Of a stretch of DNA of 64,000 bases, positions 1 through 9,862 are shown one piece after another (position 1 is the first letter of the stretch; every line of letters starts with the position of its first letter). The translations under genes and the position numbers were made by a program. Origin of the DNA: Chitinophaga pinensis (GTDB taxonomy: Bacteria > Bacteroidota > Bacteroidia > CAMBQF01); the NCBI GenBank assembly GCA_945869825.1, contig CAMBQF010000001.1, positions 18,372-82,371 on the forward strand, written 5' to 3'. Below the pieces are notes generated by a model, which saw only the letters and a program-made list of their open reading frames with translations, searched no databases and was not told the origin of the DNA.

Positions 1-450
1 AATAAAAAAGTTGACAACCTGAATAGTAAAATACAAACAGGTGCGGTTTTAAGCATTGCTTTTATTAAAGCCGACGCCATACAGGTGAAAAGTGGAAATG
101 AGATTAGTGTAACCAAAGCGCGCAAAACCGATAAACTGCGTTGCTGCTTTACCGTTAGTAAAAACACACTGGCGGCGGCAGGTTATAAAGACTTTTATTT
201 GCGTGTTATCGACCCATCGGGCACGGTAATACAAAACGATGCTAATTTAGGTGGATCGGGTGAGATAAAGATAAAAGAAGGCACTACGGTAAGTTATACC
301 ACTAAAGCCAGCGTGCTATATGAAAATGAAAACGTAGAAACCTGCGTTTATACATACGGAAAATCAAAAAATTACGACAAAGGCAATTATAAATTTGAGA
401 TATTTTACGAAAACCAGAAAGTTGCCTCTACCAGTATTGCGCTTAAGTAA
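1..450 (+). CDS. hypothetical protein, 5'-partial (open at window edge); C-terminal ~110 aa domain paralogous to C-terminus of next gene
   Basis: Frame 1 open from base 1 through stop at 450; C-terminal domain (KLRCCFTV...DPSGTV...C.Y.YGK...GNYKFEI) aligns with C-terminus of 517..1443 product. Confidence 0.5.
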   Translation, partial: NKKVDNLNSKIQTGAVLSIAFIKADAIQVKSGNEISVTKARKTDKLRCCFTVSKNTLAAAGYKDFYLRVIDPSGTVIQNDANLGGSGEIKIKEGTTVSYTTKASVLYENENVETCVYTYGKSKNYDKGNYKFEIFYENQKVASTSIALK

Positions 451-516
451 TATATAAGTAATATTGCGGCACAAAATTTGACAATTATTTAAGTTTAATT
501 TATAATTACTATTGAA

Positions 517-1443
517 ATGGAAACCTCAAATAATAACGACAATAAGTCGAACAACAAAACCCTGGTCATCATCCTTTTTGCTTTGGTTGGCGTGTTGGGC
601 GGTACTACCGCTTACTTTGGCTACCAGTTAACTCAAAAGCAAGACCAGATTACTGTTTTAACAGAAGAAAAAACGAAAGTAGTAGATGAGAAATCGGCGC
701 TTGAAGACAAGCTGAAAAAACAAATTGCCACATACGACTCTTTATTTGCAGTAAACGCAGATGCGCAGGCTCTTTTAGGCGATGAGCGCGCTAAAGTAGA
801 AGACCTGCTTAAAAAAGTATCAAGCTTACAGGGTAATGCAGGTGCAATGAAAAAATACAAAGCCGAAGCTGAGAAATTGCGCAAAGACCAGGTAGACCTG
901 TTGAAACAGATAAAAGATTTGCAAGACCAAAATGTTGACCTGACAGCAGCTAACGTTACCCTGCACAAAGACCTTACCGAAACCAAGACAGAAAATGCCG
1001 CTTTGGGTACAGAGAATAAACGGTTAAATACTACTGTTGATGTGGGTTCGCGCTTGCGTGCCTATGAGGTTGTTTCTGAGGGCATTAAAGTATCGGGCTC
1101 TGGTAAAGAAAAATCTACCAGCAAGGCAAAGCGCTCTAACAAAATACGCACCTGCTTTACCTTGTTAGAAAATGCCATTGCCCAAAAAGGCAACCGCACA
1201 TTATACATGGTTGTTAAAGACCCATCGGGCCAGGTGCTGGCTACAGGCAATGAGAGTACCTTTACATCCAGCGATGGCAGCACTGTAGTATACTCAGCCA
1301 AAAAAGAGGTTGATTATGACAACGGCAAAGCAGTAGATATTTGTATGTATTTTGGTAAAGATGATATGCCCAAAGGCAAATACGCTGTAGATGTGTATTG
1401 CGATGGTTACGCTATTGGCTCATCAAGCTGCGAATTGAAATAA
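517..1443 (+). CDS. membrane-anchored coiled-coil protein with conserved Cys-containing C-terminal domain (hypothetical)
   Basis: N-terminal TM helix (LVIILFALVGVLGGTTAYFGY), long K/E/L/Q-rich heptad region, C-terminal domain homologous to preceding ORF (KIRTCFTL...DPSGQV...DICMYFGKD...YCDGY). Confidence 0.55.
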   Translation: METSNNNDNKSNNKTLVIILFALVGVLGGTTAYFGYQLTQKQDQITVLTEEKTKVVDEKSALEDKLKKQIATYDSLFAVNADAQALLGDERAKVEDLLKKVSSLQGNAGAMKKYKAEAEKLRKDQVDLLKQIKDLQDQNVDLTAANVTLHKDLTETKTENAALGTENKRLNTTVDVGSRLRAYEVVSEGIKVSGSGKEKSTSKAKRSNKIRTCFTLLENAIAQKGNRTLYMVVKDPSGQVLATGNESTFTSSDGSTVVYSAKKEVDYDNGKAVDICMYFGKDDMPKGKYAVDVYCDGYAIGSSSCELK

Positions 1444-1495
1444 TTGCACCCCTCCCTAAATCCCTCCCCCGGGGTAGAGCGACTTTAAAATACTG

Positions 1496-1530
1496 AAAAG
1501 CCCTTTCAAGAAATTGGAGGGGCTTTTTGT
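1496..1530 (+). terminator. rho-independent terminator after coiled-coil gene
   Basis: AGCCC...GGGGCT stem followed by TTTTTGTT. Confidence 0.45.
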
Positions 1531-1536
1531 TATGCA

Positions 1537-1968
1537 TTACTTAGTGTAGTTTTTTAATGCCATAAGGGTAACTGTAGCTGTGGCGCACAGCTTTTCGTCG
1601 GCGCCTGTTTTGGCAAATACATCAGCATTGCAAATAGTTAGCGTTTTGCCTGCTTTGATAACTCTGGCGCGAGCTATTAATACCTCTCCTTTAGCGGGAG
1701 CCAGCAGGTTTACTTTATACTCTACTGATAGAACAGAAGAGCCTTCTTCCATAGTGCTGAAACCGGCCATTCCTGCCGCGTTATCGGCTATTGTGCCTAC
1801 TATCCCGGCATGAAAGAATTTATTTTGCTGGGTAAGCTCATCGCGGTAGGGTATTTCCATCTCGCAAAGGCCATACTCCAAAGCCGTAATTTTTGCGCCT
1901 ATAAAATTTAGAAATGCTTGTTTTGCAAAGGTGTCGTGAATGACAGCTTTAAAATCGTAGTTGCTCAT
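1537..1968 (-). CDS. PaaI/YigI-family hotdog-fold acyl-CoA thioesterase
   Basis: ~140 aa, hotdog thioesterase-like sequence (HAGIVGTIADNAAG...VEYKVNLLAPA). Confidence 0.55.
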   Translation of the reverse strand: MSNYDFKAVIHDTFAKQAFLNFIGAKITALEYGLCEMEIPYRDELTQQNKFFHAGIVGTIADNAAGMAGFSTMEEGSSVLSVEYKVNLLAPAKGEVLIARARVIKAGKTLTICNADVFAKTGADEKLCATATVTLMALKNYTK

Positions 1969-1980
1969 GCTGCAAAAGTA

Positions 1981-2007
1981 AAGCCCCGCAAGTAATTTGC
2001 GGGGCTT
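1981..2007 (-). terminator. hairpin terminator (AAGCCCCGCAA / TTGCGGGGCTT) downstream of phosphatase-family gene
   Basis: perfect 11-bp inverted repeat with 5-nt loop directly after stop of 2037..3356. Confidence 0.45.
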
Positions 2008-2036
2008 TAATCTATTTTATTTTAATATATATATGC

Positions 2037-3356
2037 TTAGTGCTTACCGTTGCAATTGCTATGGTCGTGGTCTGGAGTAGCAACACCTTTAGGTGCTGTT
2101 TGGTTTATTAAAACCCTTTTGGTTACCTCGTTGCCACCAATATTTAATTTAATAAAGTATATACCATCGGCATTTCCTTCAAAATTAAGTGTAAGCTTGT
2201 TTTGCGATGTTATAACAGATGGCACGTTTACCAATTTGCCTTCGTTGGTATATACAGCATAGTTTACCCTGCTGTTTTTCTTATTTTCAAACCAAAGCGA
2301 AACTAAATCTGATGCAGGGTTAGGGTAAACTGAAACAGATAACTCGGCTGGCTTTTCTGCAACTGATGTAATTGTTTTTAGCCATGATTTACCGTCCAAA
2401 TCCCATGCGGTAACATCTTCAGGGTTAGTGCCTGTATCGTAAATAAGGTGGTGTAGTGCAGTAACGGCAATATCGGTTTGTACTGGTGTTTGGCGTAAAA
2501 TGGCAGTATCTACCGCTTCAACAAAGTAAGGAAAGCCTGTGTATTGGTAGCTGCCGGGGTCGGTACCGGTAATTGTTTGTTGTTGTATAGCATTACCACT
2601 GCCAATCCACCAAATATTGCGCTCAATATCAGTACCGCCACCATGGCCGGTGCCAATGCCACCGTGGTCTGTTGTTATAAGAATTATCCAATCTTCATTT
2701 GCGTAGTTTGGGCGTGCATACAAAGCATTTAAAACGGTTCCCAAATGTCCGTCTACCCCTTCAATAGCAGCCATGTAGCTTGGGTTAGATGGGTTAAATC
2801 CGCTGGCGTGGCCTGCTAAATCTACGGCATCAAAATAAACAAATAATGCATCAAGGTTTTCGTTTGCAAGAGCGGTAACGGCTGCTGCTGCTGTTGGGGT
2901 TCCAGCGCCATCAGGCACTTTAATTTTTTGATCCCAGCCATCATTACTTACCAGATCACTCATTGGGGCCCACTCTGTAACCTGCACGGCATATAGGCTA
3001 GGCTTTAGTTCTTTAGCCCGGGTAACAAAGTAAGGATATTGTGCATAATTGCTACCAGTGTAAGAGTTGCTGGTAACGCCATGTTTGTTTTCCCAAACAC
3101 CGCACATAATATCTGACCAAGATGGGCCAGATACAGTAATGCCACAATGCCAGGCATCAAAAGTATGAAGGCCATTGGCTAAAAGGCCATCAAGGTTAGG
3201 GGTGTTGGCTTGTTGTAAAGCATCAGAACGTGTACCGTCGATGCCAATAACCAATACTTTACGTGGCTGCGATGCAATTGCTGCAAACGAAACAACCAGT
3301 AAAAACGCTGAAAGAGAGAATTTGTATTTCATTTTAGATGTGTGTTTAAAAATCAA
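2037..3356 (-). CDS. alkaline phosphatase / nucleotide pyrophosphatase-phosphodiesterase family protein with C-terminal T9SS sorting domain
   Basis: Signal peptide; VLVIGIDGTRSDAL and ILITTDHGG motifs typical of AP superfamily; C-terminal ~80 aa Por_Secre_tail-like segment (VYPNPASDLVSL...GIYFIKL). Confidence 0.6.
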   Translation of the reverse strand: MIFKHTSKMKYKFSLSAFLLVVSFAAIASQPRKVLVIGIDGTRSDALQQANTPNLDGLLANGLHTFDAWHCGITVSGPSWSDIMCGVWENKHGVTSNSYTGSNYAQYPYFVTRAKELKPSLYAVQVTEWAPMSDLVSNDGWDQKIKVPDGAGTPTAAAAVTALANENLDALFVYFDAVDLAGHASGFNPSNPSYMAAIEGVDGHLGTVLNALYARPNYANEDWIILITTDHGGIGTGHGGGTDIERNIWWIGSGNAIQQQTITGTDPGSYQYTGFPYFVEAVDTAILRQTPVQTDIAVTALHHLIYDTGTNPEDVTAWDLDGKSWLKTITSVAEKPAELSVSVYPNPASDLVSLWFENKKNSRVNYAVYTNEGKLVNVPSVITSQNKLTLNFEGNADGIYFIKLNIGGNEVTKRVLINQTAPKGVATPDHDHSNCNGKH

Positions 3357-6291
3357 ATTTAAAGCCTATTTGTCCGCGCTGGCGGTAATATTCGGTGCGT
3401 ATGGGCCTTTCTTTTTGTCCACGGTAGGTTAAGTCAGGCCAATCAAGCAGATTCATTAACTCAACATATACTGTGTAATGCTTTTTAAAAGTGTACGAAC
3501 CTCCAAAATCAAGAGAATACATAGGGCCTTTAAAAATATCGAAATCGCTATTGTTGTGTATGTATATCAAGTTGCCATTAAGGTCTTTTACAGTAGCCAG
3601 GTTAAGGTCTTTTAAATAAGCACCGGTATAGTTAAATGCTATGCGGGCCTGTAGGTGGTCGTTTTCATAAAACAAAGCCACATTATACAAAAACGGGGTT
3701 TGCTCTGTCATAGCCTGTTTGTTGCTGCGCCCCGGTGCCTGCATACGCGATAAAGAATAGGTTAGATTAGCATTTAAGCCAAATCCACTTAATATGCCAG
3801 GCAAACCAGTAAATTTCCGCACAAATGCCCCTTCAAAACCATACACGAATGATTGATTTGCATTATCGTAACGTTTGGCTACAATACCAATTTGATCAAC
3901 ATACGATGTAGTGATGGCAAATATATGGTTTACAACATATTTATAGTAGCCCCCAACAGAAAACATGCCCTTGTTGCCCCAAAAATACTCATACGTTAAA
4001 TCAAAGTTGTATGAATAGGCCGGCTTAAGCCTGGAGTTTCCATAAGTAAGGTCAAGGTCGTCTATACAATAAGCGCCGGAGCCGGGTTTGGTTTCGGCAA
4101 AATTGGGCCTGTGCATGGTGCGAGAAAATGCACTGCGCAGGTTCATCTTGTCATTAATAGTCCATGTTGCGTTTATTGATGGAAGCACAGACAGGTATTT
4201 AAGGCTGGTGCGGCGTTGTTCAGGCACGTAGTAATAATTGCCTGTGGGCTGGTCAAATGCCAGTGAATCTAAAAGGGTGTCTGAAAGTTCTTGCAGATTG
4301 GTATATTCAAGGCGGGCGCCTGCTACCAGCTGTATCTTACCCAGCTTAACATCGGCCATGCCATAACCGGCATATACCCCTTCGGTATACGTATAGCGGT
4401 TGCCTGCCCAAAACCTGTATTCTGTATTTACAGGGTTCATTTCGTATGGCTTTAGTGTGTCGCCAAGGTTAGGCACAAAATTCAATAATTGGTCTTGGGG
4501 CAAAAACGGGAAAAAGCTGCCTGCATAAGGGCTGCCCAGCTCTCTTAAAAAGCCACCCCGCTCGTCTAATTGTACTGTATTAAAATCGGTAAGCAGGTAA
4601 GGTTGTGGTCGCAGTGGCACGTTTTGCCTCCACTCGTATAAACTTACAAGCCTGGCACCCTCTTTATAGCGGCCTTTAAAACCAAATTGTAGTTTTACAT
4701 CGTTATTTATAACATAATTAAGGTCTACCCGGGCAACAACAGGGTCTCGTTCCCAGGTATCGTTCAACTCTGACCATGAACGGTAAAACTCAAAATCGCC
4801 AGGCTGCAAAGGGTCTGTGCTTTGTGGGTTTATGGGTTGGGGTTGTATGTTGTTATAATCATCACCAGTACCATAGGGATTATCTACCCCTAATAATTTT
4901 GTAACAATTGGCGCAACAGTATTTGGCCCCACAGGGTCGCCATTAAATTCTACAGAATCAACATCTTTATAATACAACAGCGGGCTCATAAACTCTGTAA
5001 AAAAGTACCCGTTTCGGGGGTCTTTATTTTTAAACGGGCGGTTGCCATACCTAAAGCTGTTATGGTACGTAGCCACTTTGGCTGTTACGGTAATTTTGTC
5101 ATTGATTTTAAATTCGCCGTGTACATCGCCACCAAAAAGCTGGCGTATTAACATACCGCTTATGCTTTGCAGCCTTAACCTTGCGCCCGACCCATCGCTA
5201 TAATTAAAACGGGTTTTATATTGGTTTTTATCATCGCTTAAGCGGCCATAAAAAAAGCGGCCACCAATGGTTACTTTGTCGTTAGGCTTATACTCAAATG
5301 CTGCATTGGCACCAATGGTATTGCGCATACCCGAGTAGTCTTTAAGTTCGTAACTGGCAATGCCCTGGTTAAAATTGCTGGCATAAACTACCTTGTATGC
5401 CTGTGCCCCGTAGTAGCGCCCGTAGTACGAACCATCAAGCACATAAGAGAATTTTTTGTTTTTAGATACGTTGCCATACGTAACAGCTGCATTCATTAAA
5501 GGCTTTCCGGCCAGGGTGTTATAACCGCCCCCTATGTTTACTTTAAATGTCTTCTTCTCAACATTAGAGCGGGTTAAAAAATTAATAATCCCGCCAATAT
5601 TATCCGACTCCTGGTCGGGTGTTACTGTGCGCGCAACAACAATATAATCAATAAAATCAGAGGGTAACACTTCAAAATCAAAAGCACGGCTGGCATTTTC
5701 TTCGTCAGATGTTGGCAGCCTGTCGCCGTTTACCAATGTCGCTGTCCAATCTATAGGCGTACCCCTTAATGATACCAGGCTTCCCTCGCCTTTGTCGTTT
5801 TGTACAGATGTTCCTGCAATCCGTTTTACAGCTTCGGCGGCTGTTTTAGAGGGCAATTTAGCTATAGCCTCTGACGACATTACTGATACAACATGCGAAG
5901 ATGTTTTAACCATATTGATGGCCTTATCTTCGCTGCCAATTTTGTAGCTACCCGTTACCGATACTTCTTTTAGCGTTTTAGCATCGGGTTCTAGTTCAAT
6001 GTCGTGCAACTGGGTTGTTGTACCAGCTGTAATAACCACCTCTTTTTGCAAAGGTTTAAAGCCAAGGTAGGTTACTTTTATTATTTGCTTGCCTACAGGT
6101 ATATTGAATAATTGAAATGTACCATCAAAAGCTGTTGTAGTACCTAGCTTTGTAGCTTCAATTATTACTATAGCGCCCGGCAACGATTCTCCTTTACTAA
6201 TCAGCCTGCCAGATAGCGTGCCAGTTTGTGCAGACAATACAACAATACAAAAAGAAAATAGAAATAATATAGTGTACTTAACTTTCGCCAC
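3346..6291 (-). CDS. TonB-dependent outer-membrane receptor (carboxypeptidase-regulatory-like N-domain + plug + beta-barrel)
   Basis: 981 aa, signal peptide, N-terminal CarbopepD_reg-like (SGRLISKGESLPGAIV), plug-like region, C-terminal aromatic terminus (KFDF). Confidence 0.8.
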   Translation of the reverse strand: MAKVKYTILFLFSFCIVVLSAQTGTLSGRLISKGESLPGAIVIIEATKLGTTTAFDGTFQLFNIPVGKQIIKVTYLGFKPLQKEVVITAGTTTQLHDIELEPDAKTLKEVSVTGSYKIGSEDKAINMVKTSSHVVSVMSSEAIAKLPSKTAAEAVKRIAGTSVQNDKGEGSLVSLRGTPIDWTATLVNGDRLPTSDEENASRAFDFEVLPSDFIDYIVVARTVTPDQESDNIGGIINFLTRSNVEKKTFKVNIGGGYNTLAGKPLMNAAVTYGNVSKNKKFSYVLDGSYYGRYYGAQAYKVVYASNFNQGIASYELKDYSGMRNTIGANAAFEYKPNDKVTIGGRFFYGRLSDDKNQYKTRFNYSDGSGARLRLQSISGMLIRQLFGGDVHGEFKINDKITVTAKVATYHNSFRYGNRPFKNKDPRNGYFFTEFMSPLLYYKDVDSVEFNGDPVGPNTVAPIVTKLLGVDNPYGTGDDYNNIQPQPINPQSTDPLQPGDFEFYRSWSELNDTWERDPVVARVDLNYVINNDVKLQFGFKGRYKEGARLVSLYEWRQNVPLRPQPYLLTDFNTVQLDERGGFLRELGSPYAGSFFPFLPQDQLLNFVPNLGDTLKPYEMNPVNTEYRFWAGNRYTYTEGVYAGYGMADVKLGKIQLVAGARLEYTNLQELSDTLLDSLAFDQPTGNYYYVPEQRRTSLKYLSVLPSINATWTINDKMNLRSAFSRTMHRPNFAETKPGSGAYCIDDLDLTYGNSRLKPAYSYNFDLTYEYFWGNKGMFSVGGYYKYVVNHIFAITTSYVDQIGIVAKRYDNANQSFVYGFEGAFVRKFTGLPGILSGFGLNANLTYSLSRMQAPGRSNKQAMTEQTPFLYNVALFYENDHLQARIAFNYTGAYLKDLNLATVKDLNGNLIYIHNNSDFDIFKGPMYSLDFGGSYTFKKHYTVYVELMNLLDWPDLTYRGQKERPIRTEYYRQRGQIGFKFDF

Positions 6292-7561: not shown

Positions 7562-8701
7562 ATGGCCAAAAGGAAAAAAATTTTAGTTGCTCCGCTAAAT
7601 TGGGGGCTTGGGCATGCAACACGATGCATACCAATAATTAAAAAACTTAAAGAAAAAGGCTACGAGGTTATAGTAGCAGCATCAGACAGGCCATACCATT
7701 TATTAAAAAAAGAATTTCCGGAGCTTACCCATATTTATTTCCCAAATTATGAGATTGATTACCCTGAAAAAGGGAAAATGGGTTGGCACATGTTCAAAAT
7801 GGCACCAGAGGTATTCAGGCAAACGGGTAAAGAGCACCGAAAATTAAAAAAGATAATAGGGCGGTATAAAATAAAAGGGGTTATATCAGACAACCGCTTT
7901 GGCTTATCAAGCAAACAGGTGCCCTGCATATTTATATCGCACCAGTTGCAGTTAGAAATGCCTAAGGGCTGGGGTGTTTTTAAGCGTTTGGTAAACTGGA
8001 TTAACTTAAGTTACATGAAAAGGTTTGACGCTATCTGGATTCCTGATTTTGAAGGAGAACACAACCTTTCGGGCAGCCTGTCTCATTTTAAACACATACC
8101 CCAAAACACTACTTATTTAGGCTTGCTATCGCGGTTTTCTGAATTGAGTGGTAAGGAAGTAAAAGAAACAGGAAGTTACGACCTACTAATCAGCATATCG
8201 GGGCCAGAACCCCAGCGGACTATTTTGGAAAACAGGCTTACAGAACAAGCGTTGAAACTGCCCTATAAAACACTAATGGTTGTTGGTAAAACAGAGGATG
8301 GAAAAGACAGTGTTGATATAACCGATAAATTTAAAAAAGTAGCCCACCTAAATGCAGAGCGGATGTATAGTGCCATGAGGGATGCCAAATACATTATATG
8401 CCGGTCTGGCTATTCTACCGTAATGGATCTTGCGGCAATTGGCCAAAAGGCTGCTTTTATTCCTACGCCGGGGCAATCTGAACAAGAGTACCTTGCTGAA
8501 AAATATAAAAACGAGGGACTGGCTAATTTTATGGCCCAGGATGTTGTGAGTATAGAACAGCTTATTGCCGAATATGAAAATTATAAGGGTTTTGGCGGAT
8601 TTGATGCAGGGCCTGCTATATTAGATAATTGCCTTGACGTATTTTTGCAGAGGGTAGAAACACATACCCCAATTAAGTATAGCAAAAACAGCGGGTTGTA
8701 A
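7562..8701 (+). CDS. glycosyltransferase, GT1/GT28 (MGT/MurG-like) family
   Basis: N-terminal LVAPLNWGLGHATRCIP motif characteristic of GT-B UDP-glycosyltransferases; ~380 aa. Confidence 0.55.
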   Translation: MAKRKKILVAPLNWGLGHATRCIPIIKKLKEKGYEVIVAASDRPYHLLKKEFPELTHIYFPNYEIDYPEKGKMGWHMFKMAPEVFRQTGKEHRKLKKIIGRYKIKGVISDNRFGLSSKQVPCIFISHQLQLEMPKGWGVFKRLVNWINLSYMKRFDAIWIPDFEGEHNLSGSLSHFKHIPQNTTYLGLLSRFSELSGKEVKETGSYDLLISISGPEPQRTILENRLTEQALKLPYKTLMVVGKTEDGKDSVDITDKFKKVAHLNAERMYSAMRDAKYIICRSGYSTVMDLAAIGQKAAFIPTPGQSEQEYLAEKYKNEGLANFMAQDVVSIEQLIAEYENYKGFGGFDAGPAILDNCLDVFLQRVETHTPIKYSKNSGL

Positions 8702-8725
8702 TTTTCTAATAACGTAATTAATAGG

Positions 8726-9862
8726 ATGACAGGGTACGATATTGCCATTGTAGGAGGTGGGATAAATGGGCTGGCACATGCTTACGCCGCCGCAAAGCGC
8801 GGATTAAAAACCATTGTAATAGAGCAGAATAGCAAACCGCTGGGCGCATCGGTACGTAATTTTGGGCTACAGTTGCCATTGGCACAACCACCGGGAGCCA
8901 ATTATGCATTAGCCCTGAAAAGCCAGGCTATTTGGAGAGATGTTGCGAAGGAGTTTTCTTTTTGGTCTAAACCCAACGGGTTGCTTGTTTTAAGCCTGTC
9001 TGACCTGGAAAATACAGTAATGCATGAGTTTATTTTGCAAGCCGGGGCCATGGGTTATAACGGGCTAAAATTTATCAGTAAAGAAGATTTAAAGTTAGCC
9101 ACAACAAGCAGCCTAAACTATAACACCATTGCAGGGGCTTTATTTAGTGCCGATGAAACTACCATAAACCCTGCCGAAGCTCTGCAAAAAATAGCCTTGG
9201 GGTTGAAAGAAAAATACAGCGTTGACTTTAAGTACAACTGCACGGTACAAAAAATAAGGGGCAGCGTAATTGAGACTAATTTAGGAGAAATTAATGCAGA
9301 ACGGATAATACTATGCACCGGAACAGCCTATACCCAATTTTACCCTGAAGCATTTGCTGATTTAAAGCTTAAAAAATGTAAGCTACAGGTTATGAAGCTG
9401 GAAATAACAGACCCCGCGTGGCATATTAACGAAGCTATAGCCTCGGGCATTTCTATGCTTCATTACAGCTCATTTAGCATGGCCCCCTCTATTAACAAAC
9501 TAAAATTGTTTTACGAAACCCATTACCCGGAGCTTAAAAAATACGGCATCCATATACTGGCTGTTGAAAATAATAACAGAGAACTTATTGTTGGAGACTC
9601 TCACGAATATGACGAGTATGACTTTAACCCCGGAATAAAAACAGAAATAAACGATATTATTTTAGACTGGGCCAACAAGTACCTAAACATAGCCTCTTTT
9701 AAGGTAAAAGAAACATGGACCGGCCAGTATTTGAAAAACATGGGCGGCGATATTTATTGCAGGTTAGCACCCGCAAATAATTTGCGCATAGTAAATGCTG
9801 TTGGGGGGCAAGGCATGACAATATCTTTTGGCCTTGCCGAAGAAACCTTTAACCAGTGGTAA
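8726..9862 (+). CDS. FAD-dependent oxidoreductase (DAO family)
   Basis: N-terminal Rossmann dinucleotide motif DIAIVGGGINGLAHAY. Confidence 0.7.
   Translation: MTGYDIAIVGGGINGLAHAYAAAKRGLKTIVIEQNSKPLGASVRNFGLQLPLAQPPGANYALALKSQAIWRDVAKEFSFWSKPNGLLVLSLSDLENTVMHEFILQAGAMGYNGLKFISKEDLKLATTSSLNYNTIAGALFSADETTINPAEALQKIALGLKEKYSVDFKYNCTVQKIRGSVIETNLGEINAERIILCTGTAYTQFYPEAFADLKLKKCKLQVMKLEITDPAWHINEAIASGISMLHYSSFSMAPSINKLKLFYETHYPELKKYGIHILAVENNNRELIVGDSHEYDEYDFNPGIKTEINDIILDWANKYLNIASFKVKETWTGQYLKNMGGDIYCRLAPANNLRIVNAVGGQGMTISFGLAEETFNQW

Follow-up and report, generated by a model that had tools for sequence, protein, structure and literature searches.

Tandem paralogous proteins of the Bacteroidota DUF8429 plus DUF8428 family, with a predicted membrane anchor, a zipper-containing stalk and an Ig-like head

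The 64,000-nucleotide stretch of Chitinophaga pinensis DNA analysed here (GenBank assembly GCA_945869825.1, contig CAMBQF010000001.1, positions 18,372 to 82,371; hereafter the window) begins with two adjacent genes on the forward strand that code for paralogous proteins of the DUF8429 plus DUF8428 family. Gene 1 (paralogue A) is open at the 5′ edge of the window and is represented by its 3′ part (1–450, frame 1; 149 codons and a TAA stop), and gene 2 (paralogue B) is complete (517–1443; 308 residues and a TAA stop), as an initial annotation made from the window alone had described. A 66 bp spacer (451–516) lies between them. Coordinates are given in window numbering and residue numbers refer to the gene 2 product. 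The explanation that we favour as a whole, with modest confidence, is that each is a bitopic protein dimerised through a leucine zipper and acting as a periplasmic tether or adaptor with a disulfide-stapled, immunoglobulin-like (Ig-like) head. We have high confidence in the architecture and the family assignment; the tether or adaptor mechanism is put forward tentatively, at distinctly less than even odds.

The products of genes 1 and 2 are 33% identical, with 57% positives, over 145 residues (BLASTP E 2e-21), and a tblastn search with both products found no third copy in the 64-kb window. Gene 1 was completed from two relatives, a JGI metagenome contig (L001) and a contig of the metagenome-assembled genome (MAG) 'Bacteroidetes bacterium D1_MAG_00048' (L003); the latter matches the window at 99% identity across gene 2 and at 96% across the gene 1 fragment. 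Full-length gene 1 codes in each relative for 316 residues with the same layout as gene 2, and it aligns with gene 2 at 34% identity along its whole length (about 310 residues aligned), so that the paralogy spans the anchor, the stalk and the head. All of the residues that are invariant in the family are retained in both window paralogues. The tandem paralogy proposed in the initial annotation is thus borne out by the fragment and by the upstream extension alike, as is its outline of a membrane-tethered helical stalk carrying a small globular head, although its dimensions need revision: the shared, conserved C-terminal domain is about 130 residues long (residues 178–308) rather than about 105, and the helical part covers about 140 residues (37–177) where some 250 heptad-rich residues had been described. 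A word-indexed protein search with the 149-residue gene 1 fragment returned no match even though homologues about 90% identical to it exist (L001 and P0123), and this looks like a gap in the sensitivity of the tool for this fragment and not a biological result.

Membership of the window proteins in the DUF8429 plus DUF8428 family is, on sequence comparison, near-certain. Precomputed Pfam matches to PF28533 (DUF8429) and PF28532 (DUF8428) are present on all homologues, among them P0001–P0017, proteins 92–98% identical to gene 2, and the products of both L001 genes; P0001, at 98%, has both matches. Our local copy of Pfam-A is older than PF28533 and PF28532, and the assignment is read from the precomputed annotation of these homologues. 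DUF8429 most probably corresponds to the anchor and stalk and DUF8428 to the head, because the annotation names DUF8429 first and DUF8428 second on the product and because in one distant member DivIC replaces PF28533. The head had initially been described as a novel domain that could not be placed, which no longer holds: it is already catalogued as DUF8428 and its fold is a generic one. Local Pfam-A, NCBIfam, PADLOC, PHROGs and a PDB sequence-profile search gave nothing or sub-threshold coiled-coil noise, and the C-terminal domain has no match in Pfam-A or NCBIfam. PEGA (PF08308) and CarboxypepD_reg (PF13620), which the initial annotation had named as well-characterised families that the domain might turn out to belong to, have no match in the window proteins at E≤1 and are not among the 25 families listed for 80 members at E≤0.01.

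The family is large. A profile search identified 915 family proteins among 8,000 candidates scored, and when a profile built from the two window heads was searched exhaustively it yielded 2,547 clusters at 50% identity with E≤1e-3, and 1,508 with E≤1e-10. The best 150 head-profile matches are nearly all about 300 residues long and end with this domain, and the window protein has the architecture shared throughout the family, namely about 300 residues with an N-terminal transmembrane (TM) helix, a helical region and a terminal beta domain. Those genome matches that carry titles are from Bacteroidota, apart from three MAG contigs that are evidently mislabelled, and they include Flavobacteriales (Crocinitomicaceae, Salibacteraceae, Vicingaceae and Cryomorphaceae), Aequorivita and Sphingobacteriaceae. 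The database labels 'FtsB', 'FliL', 'PqiB' and 'chromosome partitioning' found on members were rejected as coiled-coil artefacts, and no source gives the family a meaningful name.

The head of the gene 2 product (residues 178–308; 1048–1440) was modelled on its own with AlphaFold2 (AF2) as residues 170–308, giving a confident all-beta model with a predicted local distance difference test score (pLDDT) of 94 and a predicted template modelling score (pTM) of 0.87; the corresponding head of paralogue A, placed by alignment, lies at 40–447. This model superposes significantly on Ig and FN3 domains, and the head fold, as modelled, is a generic Ig/FN3-like beta-sandwich. No sequence-profile relation of the head to any Ig or FN3 family was found in Pfam-A, in the PDB profile search or among the 80 members scanned. 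The Ig-like domains of GH2 and GH3 glycosidases, the Ig-like domain of AlkC and FN3 modules are only 5–18% identical to the head, and these are internal modules of enzymes or receptors, whereas the window head sits on a membrane stalk.

Residue statistics for the family were taken from a 271-sequence alignment. Cys213 and Cys276 co-occur in 136 of 136 sequences, both window paralogues included, and form the strongest coupling by mutual information with average product correction (MI-APC; 0.513, against 0.347 for the next pair). A second pattern pairs Cys182 with Cys279; one or both of these residues occur in 124 sequences, of which 120 have the complete pair, and the two patterns are mutually exclusive in all but one sequence, which mixes both. 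The conserved cysteines that had been picked out initially are therefore common to both paralogues, as Cys213 and Cys276, but they are not invariant in the family, which has alternative pairs. Because the head cysteines are gained and lost in pairs, a disulfide in the oxidising periplasm is predicted; the covariation indicates that Cys213 and Cys276, or Cys182 and Cys279 in the other group, are probably disulfide-bonded and that the head is probably periplasmic. The codons of the predicted pair lie at 1153–1155 (Cys213) and 1342–1344 (Cys276) in gene 2, and at 145–147 and 343–345 in gene 1. Both alternative pairs involve the same beta strand (272–279), and the existence of two groups with different pairs looks like relocation of a disulfide within one fold. 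Elsewhere in the head Asn219 is invariant (271/271), Gly287 and Tyr289 are each present in 270 of 271 sequences, and Pro236, Gly225, Tyr267 and Gly196 are near-invariant. There is also a conserved basic stretch from Lys193 to Lys/Arg211, and the head is basic as a whole (median isoelectric point 8.8, with 81% of heads above 8; 6.0 for the stalk).

The rest of the protein consists of a short N-terminal tail (15 residues), one TM helix, and about 140 helical residues that end in the leucine zipper. A full-length AF2 model built with an 80-sequence alignment has a pLDDT of 84.8, with helices at residues 13–79, 81–102 and 108–177 and the beta domain at 182–307. The putative signal-anchor helix (residues 16–36; 562–624) has a median 19-residue hydropathy of 2.1 across 80 homologues, which fits an uncleaved anchor, and its flanks carry a mean of 4.5 lysines plus arginines on the N-terminal side and 2.5 on the C-terminal side in the same homologues. 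This positive-inside bias agrees with the topology deduced from the cysteine pairs, and the protein is therefore predicted to have its N terminus inside and its C-terminal domain in the periplasm. The predicted periplasmic stalk (residues 37–177; 625–1047) begins within the helix that also contains the TM segment, and in the model it is likely to form a short antiparallel three-helix bundle followed by the zipper. A helical bundle is also hinted at by MI-APC couplings among positions 73, 97/101/105 and 114, although this evidence is weak and confounded by phylogeny.

The zipper (residues 111–177; 847–1047), as delimited by per-column conservation, has Leu121, Leu128, Leu135, Leu142, Leu149, Thr156, Leu163 and Leu170 at its d positions in the window protein. 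In most members of the family position 128 holds Tyr, position 149 Val and position 156 Glu, and the d positions are 87–99% hydrophobic. Asn139 occupies an a position in 243 of 268 sequences, and Asn or Lys is found at a positions 146, 160 and 167. By the rules established for coiled coils, with Asn16 of GCN4 as the precedent, Leu at d combined with a near-invariant Asn at a is a classic mark of helices that pair in parallel and in register, and this favours a dimer of that kind here.

Tandem duplication distinguishes this clade from the rest of the family, with which the window pair shares architecture and phylum and from which it differs in no other kind; almost all other DUF8429/DUF8428 loci have one copy, whereas the clade keeps two diverged copies (~34% identity). 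Among 81 loci matching the family model two copies were found only in L001 and L003, the other 77 matching loci being single-copy. Three further loci (L086, L087 and L088) have the same tandem pair in the same order, beside a ComF-like gene, with gene 2 orthologues that are 50–67% identical. The upstream copies cluster with gene 1 at 39–53% identity and the downstream copies with gene 2 at 50–67%, and because A copies group with A copies and B copies with B copies, the duplication is old, with a fixed order and a faster-evolving A copy. We conclude from these comparisons that the tandem duplication is an old one confined to the clade of the window, L001, L003, L086, L087 and L088. An extra cysteine lies just past the TM helix in the A copies (residue 45 in L003, 47 in L086, 46 in L088 and 48–49 in L087) and is mostly absent from the B copies, although the B copy of L087 has one at residue 39. 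This extra cysteine of the A copies might provide an intermolecular disulfide between the two subunits of a dimer.

The gene upstream of the pair in L001, L003, L086, L087 and L088 is transcribed divergently from it, and its ComF-like product combines a Cys-rich N terminus with a phosphoribosyltransferase domain (8197–8835 in L001; 7255–7917 in L083). The proposal that the pair forms an operon with upstream genes is contradicted by this orientation. The ComF-like gene belongs to a conserved divergent neighbour block and is present directly upstream in 35 of the 81 loci, together with a GAF protein in 22 and a Big_5 protein (Big_5/CarboxypepD_reg) in 21; the block is kept from Aequorivita to this clade, which represents synteny at the scale of the phylum. 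At other loci the family gene is isolated, with unrelated genes on either side. Gene 2 is followed, as initially proposed, by an intrinsic-terminator hairpin (1494–1529; 16 bp with a GAAA loop, between an A run and a U run; minimum free energy −29.9 kcal/mol, z −3.1), which is shared with a convergent 4HBT thioesterase gene on the minus strand (1537–1968) and looks like a bidirectional terminator between the two; a rule-based terminator scan did not pick it up. On gene order and orientation the pair is its own transcription unit, bounded by the divergent ComF-like gene and the bidirectional terminator. In L087, a distant relative, a strong intrinsic-terminator hairpin with a U run behind it is located between the two paralogues (4907–4935; 11 bp, −19.3 kcal/mol, z −4.3), which implies separate transcripts there, and co-transcription of the pair is thus not a conserved property.

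Taken together, the mechanism that we tentatively propose would have the 15-residue cytoplasmic tail and single TM helix anchor the protein in the inner membrane with its N terminus inside, and about 140 helical residues would extend into the periplasm as an antiparallel three-helix bundle and then a leucine zipper of about 55 residues. The zipper would dimerise, with two identical chains in most Bacteroidota and perhaps one A and one B chain in this clade, and two heads would be held roughly 13–17 nm above the inner membrane. The ligand of the heads may be anionic or a glycan, or else a protein of the envelope, and the protein would act as a periplasmic tether or adaptor and not as an enzyme. 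A more ambitious form of this proposal, in which the family is a Bacteroidota-specific, dimeric, periplasm-spanning tether or ruler whose basic heads touch the peptidoglycan or the outer membrane, and in which the pair of this clade is an obligate A/B heterodimer, has in our estimate a small chance of being right.

Several observations weigh against this picture of a dimeric, disulfide-stapled periplasmic tether. Ten of the 271 aligned members have neither head cysteine pair, and the A copy of L087 has lost its pair, which argues that the staple is dispensable. The anchor may be cleaved by signal peptidase at T-T-A (residues 30–32). Only the monomer was modelled and the full-length pTM is 0.52; the charges at the zipper g and e positions, compared by eye, do not discriminate an A/B heterodimer from homodimers. 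Clustering of the neighbourhoods of the 81 loci yielded no recurring same-strand partner, and thus no operon partner that might hint at a ligand. The family has no characterised homologue, its only Pfam names are DUFs, NCBIfam has no model for it, and literature searches for PF28532/PF28533, DUF8428/DUF8429, or Bacteroidota coiled-coil or divisome proteins found nothing relevant.

An alternative, which we consider unlikely, is that these are accessory cell-division or elongation proteins akin to FtsB, DivIC and FtsL, with a zipper that pairs with a divisome partner and an Ig-like head as an extra module. There is a likeness in design, in that both have a bitopic topology with the N terminus inside and a periplasmic zipper with polar a positions (FtsB and FtsL too are built from a TM helix and a Leu zipper that has Asn at a positions), and the two side-by-side paralogues of this clade recall FtsB and FtsL; moreover, two close homologues bear the JGI name 'cell division protein FtsB', the distant member P0020 has a precomputed match to PF04977 (DivIC), and one aligned member matches DivIC at E 4.5e-6. 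Neither window protein, however, matches DivIC in Pfam even at E≤1, both are three times the length of FtsB (308 residues versus about 100) with a 130-residue beta head that FtsB lacks, and there are no dcw or division genes in any of more than 80 neighbourhoods. Bacteroidota also have a separate FtsB of roughly 100 residues, which argues further against this assignment. Other envelope proteins offer likenesses in general layout. PilN and PilO, and GspL and GspM, are likewise bitopic proteins of the inner membrane encoded by adjacent paralogous genes, and each has a coiled coil in the periplasm and ends in a small globular domain; the resemblance is by analogy only, as their globular domains are ferredoxin-like alpha/beta structures in contrast to the Ig-like head, there is no match in sequence or fold, and no pilus or secretion genes are nearby. 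MreC and TolA similarly combine an anchor, a helical spacer and a C-terminal globular domain, but the MreC match is limited to the coiled-coil region (E 0.035; 13.4 bits against a cut-off of 336), neither the MreC beta-barrel nor the TolA C-terminal domain is matched by sequence or fold in the window protein, and the His-containing motif of TolA-type TM segments is absent from the window TM helix. The annotated neighbourhoods contain no mre genes, and there is no mreBCD or tolQR context.

The divergent ComF-like gene raises another explanation, that the protein is a periplasmic component of DNA uptake in Bacteroidota (natural competence) whose basic Ig-like head binds incoming DNA and which works with the ComF-family neighbour. 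We regard this as quite unlikely. Its support comes only from the divergent synteny and the basic head, and the adjacency is divergent, unlike that of an operon, and is missing in over half of the loci; the basic patch is equally compatible with lipid or glycan binding, and the match of the head to the AlkC domain is no better than to dozens of unrelated Ig domains. A screen for competence genes in R. anatipestifer reported no gene of this type, although its 3,000 mutants were far from saturating (PMC8459023). A cytoplasmic location, with the protein as an SMC, chromosome-partition or YabA-type coiled-coil protein tethered to the inner face of the membrane by its N-terminal helix, is highly improbable. 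Weak matches to SMC, YabA, JetC and LmuB and the UniRef name 'Chromosome partitioning protein' point that way, but these matches are confined to the helical region and fall far under curated cut-offs, as is typical of coiled-coil noise (TIGR02168, for example, scores 17.9 bits against a cut-off of 567). The co-varying head cysteine pairs argue for an oxidising compartment, and the charge bias puts the N terminus inside.

Some further features of the locus and its relatives were noted. The spacer between the paralogues contains a 12/12 match to the E. coli-type sigma-70 consensus (TTGACA, 17 nt, TATAAT; 478–506 on the plus strand). It was rejected as a functional promoter and is probably a chance match, because the sequence is not kept in L001 or L003, the closest relatives, and the promoter consensus of Bacteroidota differs from that of the E. 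coli type. Two open reading frames on the minus strand (633–986 and 1062–1301) were likewise set aside as unsupported, whereas the plus-strand products have hundreds of homologues. An Rfam scan of positions 1–2200 gave no match. Beyond the thioesterase gene, the window has minus-strand genes for a phosphodiesterase-like protein (2037–3356), the L001 counterpart of which carries a Por_Secre_tail domain of the type IX secretion system (T9SS), and for a 981-residue protein resembling a TonB-dependent receptor by sequence (3346–6291), the end of which overlaps the phosphodiesterase-like gene by 11 nt. The set of genes 3′ of the thioesterase gene in L001 differs from that of the window. Near the L001 locus is also the end of a gene for a giant protein of 4,282 residues with a T9SS Por_Secre_tail (1–2753, minus strand), and in L087 a gene with phage-tail-like domains (PTL_trimer and GP38; 8208–9701) lies a few kb 3′ of the pair.

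As it stands the window pair is a real but fairly ordinary finding, the clade-specific tandem form of a catalogued and uncharacterised family, and its products are well-described conserved hypothetical proteins that bring no surprise. What is new here is the alternative cysteine pairs, the near-invariant Asn139, the basic head patch and the old duplication confined to this clade. The family itself is abundant, with thousands of sequence clusters in many Bacteroidota lineages, and it has a nearly fixed architecture and invariant residues. Its sequences suggest handles that can be tested: a predicted periplasmic topology supported by the alternative disulfides, a GCN4-like zipper that predicts a parallel dimer, and a conserved basic face on which invariant Asn and Tyr residues mark where binding is likely. 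A tether or ruler, if true, would fill the role of Lpp-type, TolA-type or other envelope connectors of Proteobacteria, whereas the ComF gene conserved beside it would point to a periplasmic component so far missing from the unusual DNA-uptake machinery of Bacteroidota. Should the protein prove to tether the envelope or to serve in competence, the biology of the Bacteroidota envelope would gain a component specific to the phylum.
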